From Candidatus Marinacidobacterales bacterium (GTDB lineage: Bacteria > Acidobacteriota > Vicinamibacteria > Marinacidobacterales > SMYC01), in assembly GCA_965237955.1 (NCBI GenBank), contig OZ250169.1:7328001-7392000 (forward strand): a stretch of 64,000 nucleotides of DNA, in the 5' to 3' direction. This document shows positions 3,066 to 16,657 of this stretch, in pieces; the first letter of the stretch is position 1; every line of letters begins with the position of its first letter. The notes under the pieces were generated by a model, which ran no database searches, was not told where the DNA came from, and worked only from the letters and a program-made list of their open reading frames with translations. The position numbers were made by a program, and so were the translations under genes.

Positions 3066-3485
3066 TCACTCGTCGCCGAGGTCGAGCTCGGTGAGCTCGG
3101 TGATTTCGGTCGCATCTTCCTCGATGTGGGACACCACCCAGCGCCTATCCACCCGCCTCATCAAGACGTATTGGCGTGTGACCGCCACGCGCCGGTTACC
3201 AAAAGGTTTCATCTCGCTCACTTTTTGAAATTGAATCGCCTCGCGCACGGTGAGGCGCACCTCGTCATCGCCTATTGGCTCGGCTGTCTCGAGATGGTAG
3301 CTCACGTCGACGATGTGTCCCTCGATATCGCGAAAGGACCGCGTCTTGCCTCGATCGAGCGCGAGGGCTGTGGCTTCGTCCCGATAGCTCCGGTAGGCCT
3401 CGGCCATGGGCCCGAAGTAGCCGACGACGTCGCGGAGCGCGGTCACGACGACAACGAACGCGAGAAACAGCAACAGCTTCTTCAA
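3066..3485 (-). CDS. Hypothetical membrane-anchored protein
   Basis: TTG start gives MKKLLLFLAFVVVV; host-like codon usage; start uncertain. Confidence 0.6.
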   Translation of the reverse strand: MKKLLLFLAFVVVVTALRDVVGYFGPMAEAYRSYRDEATALALDRGKTRSFRDIEGHIVDVSYHLETAEPIGDDEVRLTVREAIQFQKVSEMKPFGNRRVAVTRQYVLMRRVDRRWVVSHIEEDATEITELTELDLGDE

Positions 3486-11456: not shown

Positions 11457-11477
11457 ACTTTTGCCTCTCCTGCCATT

Positions 11478-12698
11478 TCAGTGGATCCTCTCGAGGGTGA
11501 GACCGCCACAGTTTAGGTAGACGAGACTGATGAGAGCTTCGGCAGAGTGGAGTCCAAAGCTGCGGTGGCTCAGCAGCCGGATTTTGTTGTTCATTCCTTC
11601 GAGTCGGCCGTTGCTGAGTCTCCACGTGACCCACGCGATGACGCCATCGAAGTGGCTGCGGATCATCTTCGCCGCGCGTTTGACGGGCTCTATCCTCGAG
11701 CTCATAGCGCGCCGCAGCCATCCTCGGAGAAACTTCTTGGCCCATGTCTCGGTTTTGTAGGTGTAGAGGTCCATGAAGTCGTCGCGCAGAAGCATGGCGC
11801 GGTAGAGGCGACGATTAGCTCGCACCTGCTCGCGGAGCACCCGTTTGTCTTTCGCGCTGCGGTTGTGTTTGGCCTTGAGAAGGGGAAACTTGGTGTTCTT
11901 GAGGTTGCGCCGGGCAGTCCCTTTGAGCTCGCGCACCAGCTCGCGCCGGGTCTTATCCACGGCCTCGTTCAGATGCTTGACGATGTGGAAGCGGTCAAAG
12001 ATCACCCGTGCCTGAGGAGCCTTTTTGCCGACGACAGTTATGTACGGCTCCCACATGTCCATGCTGACCGCTTCGAGCTCCGCGGCTCTTTGTGGTCCGA
12101 GCTTGCGGAAAAACCGCAGCAGCGTCTTGGCCTTGCGCTCCTTTCCCGCCCAGACGACCCGGCCGCTGAGATGGTCTATTACCACTGTTAAGTACTTGTG
12201 GCGTTTGCGGTAGCTGATCTCGTCCATCCCAATCACCCGCAATCCATCGAGCTCGCGCCGCTCATCCCGCTGCTCGGCAACCACTCGCTGGATGATCCGT
12301 CGCACCGAACGCCACGTCACTCGGAAATAGTTCGCTACGGCGCTGACGTCCGTCCTCTGTGCCAGCCACGCTACCTCTTGTTCGAAGCTTTTGGTAAAGC
12401 GGCTTCCCTTGTCGGCCCAAGGCACCTTTTCTCTGACCACTCCACACCGCCGACATACCACTCGTCGGATCGAGTAGCGAAGATAGGTCCGGACTCCGAA
12501 CAGGTCCAAGTGCCGCCAGTAGCGATTGTAGCGATCTTTGTTCTTGCGGACCTTTCGTCCGCAAATCCCGCACAGAGGCTTCCTCCTCCGTGGTACTACA
12601 TCCACCACCACTCTGGCTTTGTCCGCCTGGAAGTGGAAACCTCGGACCCACAGGCCTTGCAATCCGATGAGCTTGTTGACTAACGTAGTAACGCGCAT
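11478..12698 (-). CDS. ISL3 transposase
   Basis: Zn finger CGIC...CRRC, GMDEISYRK, SMDMWEPY, DRFHIVK, SNGRLEGMNNKI. Confidence 0.95.
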   Translation of the reverse strand: MRVTTLVNKLIGLQGLWVRGFHFQADKARVVVDVVPRRRKPLCGICGRKVRKNKDRYNRYWRHLDLFGVRTYLRYSIRRVVCRRCGVVREKVPWADKGSRFTKSFEQEVAWLAQRTDVSAVANYFRVTWRSVRRIIQRVVAEQRDERRELDGLRVIGMDEISYRKRHKYLTVVIDHLSGRVVWAGKERKAKTLLRFFRKLGPQRAAELEAVSMDMWEPYITVVGKKAPQARVIFDRFHIVKHLNEAVDKTRRELVRELKGTARRNLKNTKFPLLKAKHNRSAKDKRVLREQVRANRRLYRAMLLRDDFMDLYTYKTETWAKKFLRGWLRRAMSSRIEPVKRAAKMIRSHFDGVIAWVTWRLSNGRLEGMNNKIRLLSHRSFGLHSAEALISLVYLNCGGLTLERIH

Positions 12699-12823
12699 CG
12701 CGGGAACGCTCTTTTCTCTTTCGGAAAAAAAGATTCTAGCGTTCTCGCCGATGCGCATCTACACATGGCTTACCCTCTCAACCCACGGGCCTCACCAAAT
12801 GCCACTGCCCCTCAGCGGGAGAC

Positions 12824-13136
12824 GAGGCTGTGGGAAACGCCCCCACGGTTCTGGTCGTTCAGACCTTGCTCACGACTGAGTTCTCTTCGAAGCCTGGAAG
12901 GGCGTTTTCCATAGCCTCCACTAATCGAGCCCCCCCTTCCTTATTCCATATGAATTAATCTTTCTTGTATATATATCAGGAGGGGCCTGTGGGCGCTCGT
13001 GGGAAACGCGAAGCGTTTTCCAAGCGATTGTGGAAAACGCCGCTCCACGTTTGTACGTGCTCACAACCTTTCCCTAAACGCCTCTCTCGCCCGGAGTTTC
13101 CGGCGTTTTCCACAATCGCGGCAGCGTCCATAGGCC
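12824..13136 (+). ncRNA. Putative structured RNA or ssDNA element in the ISL3 non-coding end
   Basis: 19-bp stem 12824-12842/12900-12918 and a three-way junction 12984-13136; all five stem mismatches are G-U pairs on the + strand. Confidence 0.5.
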
Positions 13137-13268
13137 ATGCCCTCCAACACAAATCAGATCCCCCGAAACGACAGGAGAACCAATCTTTTAAACCCCGCCT
13201 AGGGGGGCTTTCCCCCATTCGGCCCCCATCCGGCAATTCAAGTCGTTCATTCCATACGACTTTTTTCC

Positions 13269-13284
13269 TGGCAGTTTTCTTGCA
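13269..13284 (+). promoter_or_regulatory. Putative sigma54 (-24/-12) promoter of fliA
   Basis: TGGCAGTTTTCTTGCA, with GG-N10-GC spacing, 33 nt before the ATG. Confidence 0.7.
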
Positions 13285-13317
13285 TTTGCGAGAGCAACCA
13301 TCTTTTCGGAAAACGGA

Positions 13318-14043
13318 ATGAACTCGCAAGAGGAAGCTCTGGTCAGGGATTGCCTGCCGCTCGTACGCCGGGTAGCGCTCCACGTCGCGAGCCGACTGCC
13401 TTCCCAGGTAGAGCTGTCCGATTTGATCCAGGCGGGTTTCCTCGGCCTTCTCGATGCGGCTCAAAAATTCGACGCCGACAAGGGTGTTCGTTTTTGGACT
13501 TATGCGGAGCTTCGCATCAAAGGCTCGATCCTCGATAGTCTCCGCGCTCTCGACTGGCTGCCACGTTCCGTGCGTCGTCGCCGCCGCGAGCTCGACGCGG
13601 CATCCGCGCGGCTCGAATCGTGTCTCGGCCGCACGCCGAGCGAAGACGAGCTGGCGACAGAGCTCGCGCTGACGACGGACCGGTTTCGAAAGGTGGTCGA
13701 CGAAGTCCGCGGTGCGGAAGCGAGTGCGGAGTTGGTCGAAGGGCTCGACGGCATCGACGTATTCGTGCGCGATCCGAAGGCAAAGGACCCGCACGATCTT
13801 CTCGAGCGACGAGAGCTCGTCACGCTCCTCGCGCGGGGTATCGAAGGTCTTTCGGAGCGAGAACGCCTCGTGATTGCTCTTTATTACCACGAAGAGCTCA
13901 CCATGAAAGAAGTGGGTCACGTTCTCGGCGTGAACGAGTCACGCGTGTCTCAGATTCACAGCAAAGCAGTCCAGACGCTCCGAACACGACTCGCCCGACA
14001 CCTGCGCCCGCGGCTCACCCCCACCCTCGCCCGCACCGCCTAG
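13318..14043 (+). CDS. fliA: FliA/WhiG-family sigma factor (sigma28)
   Basis: SRLPSQVELSDLIQAG, TYAELRIKGSILDSLRALDWLPRSVR, LYYHEELTMKEVG, ESRVSQIHSKA. Confidence 0.92.
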   Translation: MNSQEEALVRDCLPLVRRVALHVASRLPSQVELSDLIQAGFLGLLDAAQKFDADKGVRFWTYAELRIKGSILDSLRALDWLPRSVRRRRRELDAASARLESCLGRTPSEDELATELALTTDRFRKVVDEVRGAEASAELVEGLDGIDVFVRDPKAKDPHDLLERRELVTLLARGIEGLSERERLVIALYYHEELTMKEVGHVLGVNESRVSQIHSKAVQTLRTRLARHLRPRLTPTLARTA

Positions 14044-14081
14044 GTGCGCACAAACTCGTTCTCCGTCGAGGATAGAATCTC

Positions 14082-14209
14082 AACGCAAAGGCGCAGAGTC
14101 GCCAAGACGCAAAGTGGGCGTCGGCGCTGACTCGCGTCTTTCTATGCAGCGTCATCCTTGGCACCTCTTTCCCTAGTGACCCGTCTTTGCGACTTAGCGC
14201 CTTTGCGTT
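14082..14209. repeat. Inverted array of 8-bp NCGCAAAG units
   Basis: AACGCAAAGGCGCAGAGTCGCCAAGACGCAAAG ... CTTTGCGACTTAGCGCCTTTGCGTT. Confidence 0.75.
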
Positions 14210-14258
14210 AGTCTTTTTGCGTCGCCGCGCCGTGTTGCGATGATGTATTCTCTAAGGC

Positions 14259-14555
14259 ATGATTTGTCACGTCGTTCTCATTCGCCTCAAGGTCGAGGTT
14301 TCGCCCGCGGATACCGAGGCATTCATGGCCGAAGCAAGCAATATTCTCGCTCCGATACCCGGGGTGCGGAACTTCAAAGTCGGGAAAGGCCTCGGCGTCA
14401 AAGCCGAAGTGTCATACCCCATCGCGATGGTGATGGAGTTCGACGACGACGCTGCTCTGGAAGCGTACCAGGTTCACTCCGAGCACCAGCGTTTCGTGAA
14501 CGAGGTCGTCGGGCCGATTCACGACGACAAACGTGTGTACGACTATCGCTTTTGA
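14259..14555 (+). CDS. Dabb-family (stress-responsive alpha/beta barrel) protein
   Basis: MICHVVLIRLK, IPGV, MEFDDDAALEAYQVHSEH; 98 aa. Confidence 0.85.
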   Translation: MICHVVLIRLKVEVSPADTEAFMAEASNILAPIPGVRNFKVGKGLGVKAEVSYPIAMVMEFDDDAALEAYQVHSEHQRFVNEVVGPIHDDKRVYDYRF

Positions 14556-14728
14556 TGCGATAGCTCGCGGCACTCCTCGAAACCGAAGCGTCGCAGAATG
14601 CTCTTGGCGACGGTCTCGGCCGGCACCCAGTAAAGACCCGCGCGGACCGCTTCCCTGAGTTGGCCCAATCTCATCCGTCGCTCACGCGACGGATCTTCGA
14701 GGGTCGGGATCTCGTAGGGTCGTCTCAT
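14543..14728 (-). CDS. flgM: Minimal FlgM-like anti-sigma28 factor
   Basis: RRMRLGQLREAVRAGLYWVPAETVAKSIL fits the FlgM C-terminal pattern; sigma28-like promoter upstream; fliA 500 bp away. Confidence 0.72.
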   Translation of the reverse strand: MRRPYEIPTLEDPSRERRMRLGQLREAVRAGLYWVPAETVAKSILRRFGFEECRELSHQKR

Positions 14729-14743
14729 GTGAGGCTCGCCGTT

Positions 14744-14770
14744 CTATCGGCAGGATCGCGGGCGACATTA
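14744..14770 (-). promoter_or_regulatory. Putative sigma28 promoter of the flgM-like gene
   Basis: Minus strand TAAT-N15-GCCGATAG versus consensus TAAA-N15-GCCGATAA. Confidence 0.72.
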
Positions 14771-14801: not shown

Positions 14802-16403
14802 TTACGGGTACAGCAGGAGATGCGCTTTGAGGGCCGGGTCAGCACCCTCTTCCACCATGGTGGTGAAGTGCCAACCGTATTTGTTGAGATAGCCGAGCGG
14901 CGACAGCTTCCGCTCCTGCATATCGAAACCGGGGAATAGCGCGGTGCGCGTGGCGAGGAACTGTTGGCGGACGGTGTCGTTTTTTCGTTTCACCGCACGG
15001 AACGCCTTCGTTTCTAGCTCTTTGAGGTGGTGCAGGAGCTTCCCGCGCGTCGACTTGATGGTGGGAACCAGCGATGCGTCGACAGCGCTCAAGTCGCGCT
15101 CGAGGGCCTTGGTGATGTCCTGAATGCAATTGCGGGCTCGCTTCAAGTCTTCGTCAAGTTGTGGCGGTGTCTGCCCGCGCACGATGTCGTTGAGCAAGGA
15201 TTCATCGTCGGAGCTCAGCTTCGCGAGCGGGACGTCGTAGCGATCGAGAAAACGCGCTTGCGGTCGCTCGATCACGGTGAAGCTCGCGCGCGATGCGATG
15301 AGAGGCATCGTCAAATCGAAGTGCTCGTACACGCCTTTGAGCTGAGCGAAATACGCAAGCTCGTTGGGTCCGGCGACGTAAGCGAGAGTCGGGAACAACG
15401 TGTCCTGGTAAATGGGACGAAGCAACACATTGGGGCTGAAATGCGACGGCTCGTCGCGAAGCCTACGCGCTAGCTCATCCTTGTTGCCGTTTTCGTTTTC
15501 GGAAATGGTAACGGGGCTCCGCAGGGGATCGGCATGAAACAAGTTCAAGTGGGACTCCGAAGGTGTCGCCTGGGCGTGGTAGCCGCGCTCGACGAGCTCG
15601 GCCGTGGTCTGTTGCACCAGCTTGCGGCTAACGGAGCCTTCTTCGAGCTCGCGTGCGAAGACGTCCACACCGAGAGCTTTGAGCTCGGGAAGCGAAGGAT
15701 CGACGATGACGAGACCGCTCCCTCGGGTCATTCGCAAAAGCCAGGCCCCGAACGCTTCCGCCATCGTGCGTCCCGCCGCGTAGCTCTCTCCGAGAGTCGA
15801 CAGCATGTCCTCTTTGAACTCAGTGTCGGGGAGCGACCGAGCCGCCTCGTCCAAAACCGTTCCGATCGCGGGCGTTAGCTTGCGTCCCCCGACGGGGAGC
15901 TTCTCACTCGCATCTTCCGTGTCGTAGCGTAGCTCGACGAGCTCGTTCGCCGCATCCAGAATCCACGTGCTCTGAACCTCGGCAAAATCGTGATCGTCGG
16001 TGTCCATCCAGAAAAGGGGAACGACTTTCGTTTGGAGCTCGGCCTCAGCCGCGCGTGCGAGCCGCACCGCTGTCAGCGCCTTGTAAAGCGTGTAGAGCGG
16101 ACCGCCGAAGAGTCCCACCTGCTGGCCGGTGATGACCGCGAGCGCGCCATCGCCCAAGACGTCGATGGAGAGAAGCGCGAGCTCGTCGGCGCCGAGCGCG
16201 GTGTTGAGTGCACGCAACGGCGTCGCAGCGCTCGTCGACGGCACTCGACCCGCGAGCGCGGTCGCCATCTTCCTCCACGCCGCCGGATCGAAAGGATCCC
16301 CGGTGAAGAAAGGTGACAAGGCGCCGAACCGATGGAGATAGTCCAGGAACAGGGGCTTGTAGGAAGGAAGCTTGCGGTAATCCAGTGATTCAGCTCGTGA
16401 CAT
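14802..16403 (-). CDS. bshC: Bacillithiol biosynthesis cysteine-adding enzyme
   Basis: VITGQQVGLFGGPLYTLYKA, FWMDTDDHDFAEV, SPNVLLRP, YVAGPNELAYFAQ, QER. Confidence 0.93.
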   Translation of the reverse strand: MSRAESLDYRKLPSYKPLFLDYLHRFGALSPFFTGDPFDPAAWRKMATALAGRVPSTSAATPLRALNTALGADELALLSIDVLGDGALAVITGQQVGLFGGPLYTLYKALTAVRLARAAEAELQTKVVPLFWMDTDDHDFAEVQSTWILDAANELVELRYDTEDASEKLPVGGRKLTPAIGTVLDEAARSLPDTEFKEDMLSTLGESYAAGRTMAEAFGAWLLRMTRGSGLVIVDPSLPELKALGVDVFARELEEGSVSRKLVQQTTAELVERGYHAQATPSESHLNLFHADPLRSPVTISENENGNKDELARRLRDEPSHFSPNVLLRPIYQDTLFPTLAYVAGPNELAYFAQLKGVYEHFDLTMPLIASRASFTVIERPQARFLDRYDVPLAKLSSDDESLLNDIVRGQTPPQLDEDLKRARNCIQDITKALERDLSAVDASLVPTIKSTRGKLLHHLKELETKAFRAVKRKNDTVRQQFLATRTALFPGFDMQERKLSPLGYLNKYGWHFTTMVEEGADPALKAHLLLYP

Positions 16404-16657
16404 GGGAGACTCGGACTCCGGACGGTACTCGAACTCGCCTATCATAGCGTTCCGGTTGCCGCCGGGCCAGCAGCGGTCGCGTTGACACCCCTTAAAGGGT
16501 TGTGTTAAAGTGACTTAACTGCATTGTGGGGAGATAGGCCCTGAATCGCAACGAGAAGTCTACCTCGCAACATTGATGGATAGCCAGATAGCCAGATAGC
16601 CAGATTGACCGTCGGCCCCGGGCGATAGTAAGTAGTCAGGATGGTCGGAGAACCCCG

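Follow-up and report, generated by a model that had tools for sequence, protein, structure and literature searches.

A sigma28 factor, FliA, and a half-length form of its inhibitor FlgM are kept in the genome of a Candidatus Marinacidobacterales bacterium without genes for flagellar export or the filament, and we consider it rather probable that sigma54 triggers the pair, which would act as a self-limiting switch for genes of c-di-GMP and two-component signalling. The window analysed here is a stretch of 64,000 nucleotides (G000:C1:7328001-7392000) of the source genome, G000, an IS-rich genome of 8.13 Mb assembled as one contig (completeness 97.96%, contamination 6.2%). Among the genomes compared with it (given as G-numbers) are 18 relatives of the same family, of which G007 is the sole flagellated member, and the flagellated class-level relatives G057 and G059; g2, g5 and g6 denote genera. 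Within the family, flagellated, orphan with inhibitor, orphan without inhibitor and pseudogene states stand side by side, which makes it a natural series for studying rewiring. The motifs and genes of the sigma54, sigma28 and FlgM-like wiring, which an earlier note on this DNA had proposed from the sequence alone, are conserved across the family.

The locus and its sigma54 input

Table 1. Features of the locus in window coordinates.
Feature	Position	Strand	Remarks
ISL3 element	11459..13182 (ends approximate)	-	~60 near-identical copies in G000; not part of the module, may affect it
Upstream element: AT-rich box and imperfect palindrome of GGGG-N-TTTCCCC type	13187..13217	+	Centre ~85 nt before the expected start site
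IHF-like box, weak	13239..13251	+	Between upstream element and promoter; 1 mismatch to what we take to be the IHF consensus; conserved only loosely
sigma54 (-24/-12) promoter consensus TGGCAGTTTTCTTGCA, GG-N10-GC	13269..13284	+	33 nt before the fliA ATG
fliA, sigma28, 241 aa, intact	13318..14043	+	TIGR02479 and PRK06986 above cut-off
REP-like palindromic repeat	14044-14258		Between fliA and dabb; ~25 genome matches
dabb, stress-responsive A/B barrel, 98 aa	14259..14555	+	PF07876, E 1e-17
Short FlgM-like ORF, 61 aa	14543..14728	-	Overlaps the dabb 3' end by 13 nt
sigma28 promoter consensus TAAT-N15-GCCGATAG	14770-14744	-	15 nt before the short flgM ATG
bshC	14802..16445	-	TIGR03998 above cut-off; syntenic; directly upstream of the sigma28 promoter, same strand

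The sigma54 site, fliA, dabb, the 61-aa ORF and its TAAT-N15-GCCGATAG promoter, all announced in the earlier note, were recovered at the positions in Table 1. The sigma54 pattern alone occurs at about chance level, with 45 sites in G000 versus 34 in a reversed control. The site before fliA is kept in all 14 relatives with this fliA, and a genome search for rpoN, which the earlier note had suggested, found one copy. Promoter conservation in orthologous loci, on which that note had made its reading depend, extends to the sigma28 box, which precedes the short ORF in each of the 9 relatives where that ORF occurs. Secreted proteins or type IV pilin-like ORFs follow many of the 45 sigma54-like sites in G000 (for example C1:4802610, 5184172).

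Upstream of the sigma54 site, the AT-rich box and the GGGG-N-TTTCCCC dyad align in G000 and in 13 relatives, hence in every one of the 14 upstream regions compared. The dyad has a single match in the G000 genome, and in G009 and G015 the element is found only at fliA; it was not found in flagellated G007, G057 and G059, and is absent at the SDF-dabb locus of G007 and G003, both of which lack fliA there. The dyad is likely the binding site of a sigma54 activator. The elements of a sigma54-dependent promoter are thus present, namely a conserved -24/-12 element, rpoN and a putative activator site, the last recognised by conservation alone. No sigma54 activator gene was found at the locus and the predicted targets are scattered, so that the module is not self-contained, as it had been called.

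Other roles for the upstream element fared less well. An SDF terminator is less likely, since the element is absent where dabb follows SDF without fliA; its presence where metH, not SDF, lies within 1.5 kb upstream also disfavours this reading. A master regulator common with the flagellar cluster was rejected because the element was not found in the three flagellated genomes, and the activator of the G007 flagellar cluster was rejected as a shared regulator because its best match in G000 reaches just 39%. In G000 the ISL3 element has landed between the stop codon of SDF and the element upstream of fliA; it splits the AT-rich box and leaves the dyad intact.

The earlier note had placed dabb inside the module. 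In G007 and G003, however, an SDF-dabb-bshC context occurs without fliA and without flgM, and because the same flanking genes enclose dabb in these two relatives we judge it to lie outside the module, where it appears to be an older resident of the locus and a bystander to the switch. In two relatives of genus g2 the gap between fliA and dabb measures only 17 nt, and in that genus the bshC stop codon is the -35 box of the flgM promoter. The bshC gene, a bacillithiol biosynthesis gene above the NCBIfam cut-off in an Acidobacteriota genome, lies near metH and dabb.

FliA and a short FlgM without a flagellum

Profile searches of the whole G000 genome found neither FlhA (PF00771) nor flagellin (PF00669); in the same searches positive controls were detected in 4 of 14 reference genomes. 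Further, tblastn with FliM, FliN, FlgG, FlgH, FlgI, FlgK, FlgE, FlhA, FlhB and FliP/Q/R gave no match in G000. The queries were ORFs from the flagellar clusters of G007, G057 and G059, named, except for FlhA, by reading the ORFs, and the matches in G000 were to generic families only (GTPase, MinD-like, sigma, response regulator/activator and transglycosylase-like proteins). Among the 18 family relatives, FlhA and flagellin are missing in 17 and only G007 has both. The absence of flagellar genes reported for the window therefore extends, in a search of all of G000, to FlhA, flagellin and the rod, ring and switch proteins, but motAB-like genes and a chemosensory cluster are present.

The motA/motB-like genes (C1:6215-7901) look intact, lie behind an IS630 and are only ~30% identical to MotA of G007; motA was found in 0 of 17 non-flagellated relatives. 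The surrounding region (C1:3300-7900) holds sigma28-like boxes at 3335+, 4084- and 4824+, a 75-aa truncated CBS ORF (45% to the CBS-GGDEF protein of G007), a broken receiver ORF and the IS630. It would be either a relic or an acquired island, and the motAB-like genes and truncated CBS gene behind sigma28-like boxes among IS elements look like decay. The single chemosensory cluster (C1:8105790-8114144, minus strand) encodes MCP, CheW, CheR-, CheA-, CheB- and CheY/CheX-like proteins, assigned by reading ORFs; the MCP and CheA genes seem to be frameshifted. A two-hit CheW pattern occurs in 13 of the 18 relatives and is common among the non-flagellated ones.

FliA of G000 scores 242.9 bits with TIGR02479 (cut-off 189.6) and 236.1 with PRK06986 (cut-off 201), and its domains PF04542, PF04539 and PF04545 (regions 2, 3 and 4) place it in the FliA/WhiG sigma28 family. 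It is the only one above cut-off among 10 genome matches, and its closest titled relatives are from Acidobacteriota, two of them from Ca. Marinacidobacterales. At E 1e-40 or better, fliA is found in 15 of 18 family relatives and in none of 36 relatives from two further families of this order; this fliA occurs without FlhA in 14 of the 18. A quick tree, with G002 left out, groups this fliA in a clade of 14 rows (SH-aLRT 98) and does not separate a relocated flagellar copy from a duplicate as its origin. FliA identity between genera is just 55-77%. The fliA of G007 sits in a flhG-fliA-fliM-fliN context without a sigma54 site. Disrupted copies of the gene occur in G005 and G008, and in G002 a frameshift splits it. 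As G008, with its broken fliA, retains perfect sigma28 boxes, a conserved box is no proof of use. Its locus (G008:C3:2312900-2313600) is rearranged, with an IS-broken fliA, then a sigma28 box and short flgM on the same strand, and dabb convergent.

The description of the 61-aa ORF as the C-terminal part of FlgM only is borne out with the help of its homologues. Alone, the ORF covers positions 23-54 of the 55 in PF04316 with E 0.002 and 18.7 bits, below the cut-off of 25, and reaches 14.3 bits with TIGR03824 (cut-off 40.75). Short orthologues lie above the Pfam cut-off in G002, G009, G013 and G014 and below it in five others, and 13 of 13 aligned homologues match PF04316 and no other family (best E 1.5e-7). 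The two best PDB matches of their profile are FlgM (1rp3_B residues 57-85, E 0.029; 9wsf_B, E 0.087), and hhalign gives 90.7% to residues 63-96 of the FlgM of flagellated G007, a 102-aa protein that passes TIGR03824. The helices predicted in the 61-aa model (13-29 and 37-47) equal the FlgM C-terminal part; profile, PDB, hhalign and helices thus agree on the helical sigma-binding segment. The model has a mean pLDDT of 74 and a pTM of 0.41, and a Foldseek search of the PDB with it gave no match, which is uninformative for a model of two helices. The N-terminal half is missing: short forms cover the profile from 20-26 to 54, full-length FlgM 1-55, and the short proteins measure 55-66 aa in 10 genomes versus 102 aa in G007. 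This half of FlgM (~95-100 aa in total) carries the export signal.

A short flgM with a sigma28 box occurs in 9 of the 18 relatives and in G000, hence in 10 genomes of 6 genera. Its core dN/dS stays below 1 (~0.14-0.43) in all 8 pairs compared; because of common ancestry these pairs are not independent. The box precedes all 10 short ORFs, and in 7 of them the start codon lies 7-8 nt downstream of the -10 box, a spacing that suggests a leaderless mRNA if the start site lies where we assume it to lie relative to the box. The stop codon falls in the antisense of the dabb 3' end. Of the 14 relatives with intact fliA, 8 have a short flgM and 6 (genera g5 and g6) do not, so the feedback is dispensable and the anti-sigma is not the essential part that the earlier note had made of it. 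Residue E198 in FliA region 4, which we take to be the position of the FlgM-insensitive Salmonella allele E209K, remains E in the 8 of 8 aligned FliAs that come with a short FlgM, and G, A or Q stands in its place in the 6 of 6 that come without one; the association involves two lineages only and is a hint only. Non-flagellated G018, which has no short flgM, has a full-length flgM that is frameshifted and stands behind a perfect sigma28 box (C1:6365332-6365600), which suggests that short and long copies once coexisted.

Beyond the family, 74 of 149 further top representatives of FlgM-like proteins are at most 72 aa long, and 21 of 21 short homologues scanned match PF04316. Because annotation cut-offs often exclude short FlgM ORFs, there are probably more of them than have been counted; the 61-aa protein offers a minimal candidate anti-sigma28 of natural origin. 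A metagenome scan with it gave 598 pattern matches, none of them confirmed. Two metatranscriptomes contained 5-6% of the sequence words; their contigs covered the IS, repeats and two short dabb pieces but no part of fliA or flgM at high identity, which says nothing either way.

Predicted sigma28 targets

The scan for sigma28 sites outlined in the earlier note returned three exact sites in the 8.13 Mb of G000 and none in the reversed control. These precede the short flgM, a REC-REC-GGDEF-EAL gene (C1:4440629) and a hybrid kinase (C1:2600378). In most of 33 genomes the exact-pattern counts are not above reversed controls. The predicted TAAA-N15-GCCGATAA promoters draw on consensus matches and conservation, and are absent at two loci tested in order-level kin without fliA.

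Conservation was scored with a promoter matrix for which 11 flgM promoters of other genomes were the sole training set and which admits more than one spacing, including N16. Twelve of 14 family orthologues of the GGDEF-EAL gene score at least 18.9 (the exceptions are G016 with 6.8 and G005 with 1.4; the G007 orthologue has no upstream DNA). For a 201-aa receiver protein, the score is at least 15.2 in 11 of 12 orthologues (the exception, G006, has 12.9). The background is 3 of 2000 random windows at 14 or above, and 0 of 6 outgroup or paralogous loci exceed 5.3. Across the G000 genome, the matrix finds as many sites of at least 19 bits as in the reversed control (7 versus 7), and 3 versus 1 at 21 or more. 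Therefore only conserved targets count, and the single-genome candidates in G000 (an MshEN-PilB ATPase, a second hybrid kinase, motAB and the truncated CBS gene) are leads only.

The GGDEF, EAL and DDFGTG motifs are intact in the sequence of the G000 enzyme. The hybrid-kinase promoter is common to G000 and G006, and the frameshift in the kinase gene of G000 is absent from the contigs of 3 of 4 runs. Since sigma28 boxes also precede the CBS-GGDEF and receiver targets in flagellated G007, part of the regulon looks inherited from the flagellar state. The conserved target boxes make c-di-GMP and two-component signalling the likely output. This agrees with the non-motility regulon foreseen in the earlier note, as the best-supported predicted targets (GGDEF-EAL, receiver) are non-motility genes. 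The MshEN and T2SSE (PilB/GspE-like) ATPase gene (C1:6777623-6779607, minus strand) stands behind a strong sigma28-like box and would link the switch to a c-di-GMP receptor; it was rejected as a conserved target because a query with its N-terminal half found no match at 1e-40 in 28 relatives.

Mechanism, rival explanations and known systems

Every regulatory step, binding event and release route in the switch is a prediction built on genes, motifs, their conservation and the absence of FlhA and flagellin. An enhancer-binding protein at the conserved palindrome would activate sigma54 transcription of fliA. The resulting sigma28 would transcribe a small dispersed regulon, namely the REC-REC-GGDEF-EAL enzyme, the 201-aa receiver protein and the hybrid kinase, as well as the short flgM, whose 61-aa product would limit the response by binding to region 4 of sigma28. 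Because export is impossible with neither an export apparatus nor the N-terminal half, the inhibition would be overcome not by secretion but by titration, through an excess of sigma28 after sigma54 induction, and by anti-sigma turnover.

The persistence of fliA, its sigma54 promoter and the target boxes in genera g5 and g6 without a short flgM would also fit a plain relay from sigma54 to sigma28, in which the short FlgM acts at most as a weak and optional brake, or is an eroding fragment that has ceased to inhibit. The short ORF has no stop of its own, terminating in the dabb antisense, and its N- and C-terminal flanks vary freely. We hold this to be unlikely, since ORF, frame and promoter are kept in the 10 genomes of 6 genera with core dN/dS below 1, and FliA E198 is altered only where the short ORF is missing. 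It is improbable that the whole system has no function left and is decaying after a recent loss of the flagellum. One family member is flagellated, G018 has its full-length flgM pseudogene, G000 has motAB-like genes and broken neighbours, and fliA is a pseudogene in G005 and G008 and frameshifted in G002. However, fliA lies outside any flagellar cluster under its own conserved promoter, which the flagellar copy of G007 lacks, and is intact in genera with FliAs as far apart as 55-77% identity, FlhA and flagellin being gone in all.

The boxes before the MshEN-PilB/GspE ATPase (C1:6779607) and before the motAB-like genes behind IS630, together with CheW in 13 of 18 relatives, could instead point to a switch for a motility or surface programme that does not involve flagella (type IV pili, chemosensory system, stator pair) to which the c-di-GMP genes are accessory. 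This is quite improbable, given that the N-terminal half of the ATPase has no match in the 28 relatives, that no non-flagellated relative has motA and that no sigma28 box of 15.5 bits or more stands directly before the che cluster. An ordinary dispersed fliA/flgM pair of a flagellated organism, its flagellar cluster lost from the assembly, is barely credible. The genomes are indeed metagenome assemblies and motAB-like genes are present, but G000 is one nearly complete contig and none of the 14 relatives with this fliA, several of which are assembled in 1-20 contigs, has FlhA or flagellin, so that this explanation is largely refuted.

The sigma54-triggered, self-limiting switch that we favour has partial precedents. 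FliA-FlgM feedback without a flagellum was already described for non-flagellated Legionella oakridgensis, where, in the review text compared here, FliA and FlgM are functional, flgM is sigma28-dependent, and FlgM is not exported and apparently degraded (Tlapak et al. 2017, via PMC5655016); the same text names a GGDEF/EAL gene among the L. pneumophila FliA targets. Like that pair, G000 has intact fliA and flgM, a sigma28 box on flgM, no flagellar regulon and no release by export, with motAB-like genes remaining. Unlike it, as far as the compared text goes, the locus belongs to another phylum, fliA is served by a conserved sigma54 promoter of its own and a palindrome upstream of it, FlgM is cut to its C-terminal part (that text gives no length for Legionella FlgM) and the conserved predicted targets are c-di-GMP and two-component genes.

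In the hierarchy outlined for Vibrio cholerae in the text compared, FlrA and RpoN drive fliA, and sigma28 drives flgM (PMC3930126), an order predicted here too; unlike in V. cholerae, there is no basal body, export apparatus or flagellin, and FlgM is without its N-terminal half. Unlike in the sigma54-sigma28 flagellar hierarchy, fliA here lies outside the flhF-flhG-fliA operon that flagellated G007 keeps. The FlgM of Helicobacter pylori is short. It is described as cytoplasmic and non-secreted, with a release thought to involve FlhA (PMC3930126, in the part compared); here too the anti-sigma28 would not be released by secretion, but H. pylori is flagellated and FlhA, part of its release, is absent here. 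In Actinomycetota, the sigma28-family factor WhiG is reused with RsiG, and DGC/PDE genes are frequent predicted targets in the compared part of a preprint (PMC12871210). A sigma28-family factor outside motility with DGC/PDE-type predicted targets is common to both, whereas the anti-sigma there is c-di-GMP-armed RsiG and the neighbouring ORF here is FlgM-like; the compared text describes no sigma54 input, while fliA here has a sigma54 site.

The locus thus resembles the L. oakridgensis orphan pair and is not a member of the flagellar export checkpoint (described in PMC8306008, as far as compared), whose export apparatus and flagellin are not in G000. FliA-FlgM without flagella being already published, what is new here is the lineage, the truncated inhibitor, the dedicated sigma54 promoter and the conserved predicted c-di-GMP regulon. 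A search of mostly open-access literature returned nothing on the order by name, nor on FliA/FlgM with flagellar loss in Acidobacteria, and brought up no closer case. A late flagellar checkpoint can, it appears, outlast the flagellum, with fliA under its own sigma54 promoter, the sigma-binding half of the inhibitor and part of the c-di-GMP regulon kept.

A more far-reaching reading is tentative. Half-length FlgMs may form a distinct, widespread, export-independent class of anti-sigma28 proteins; here a pulse generator of sigma54, sigma28 and mini-FlgM would drive a so far undescribed lifestyle or developmental programme based on c-di-GMP. The mini-FlgM might have arisen as a second copy beside the flagellar one (the G018 relic, nested in the clade); its mRNA would often be leaderless, possibly with antisense feedback through the convergent dabb/fliA unit.

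Sigma28 factors outside flagellar clusters also occur in other genomes. G059 and G057 have a second, long-branch FliA outside the flagellar cluster (G059:C4, G057:C140); in G059 this gene has a sigma54 site, a small HTH-like ORF driven by sigma28 lies upstream, and there is no FlgM close by. Six loci in other Acidobacteriota and Binatia-like genomes (L078, L091, L097, L141, L106 and L139) combine fliA and a nearby FlgM-like ORF with no tested flagellar gene within 5 kb, and the ORF of L141 is ~55 aa long.
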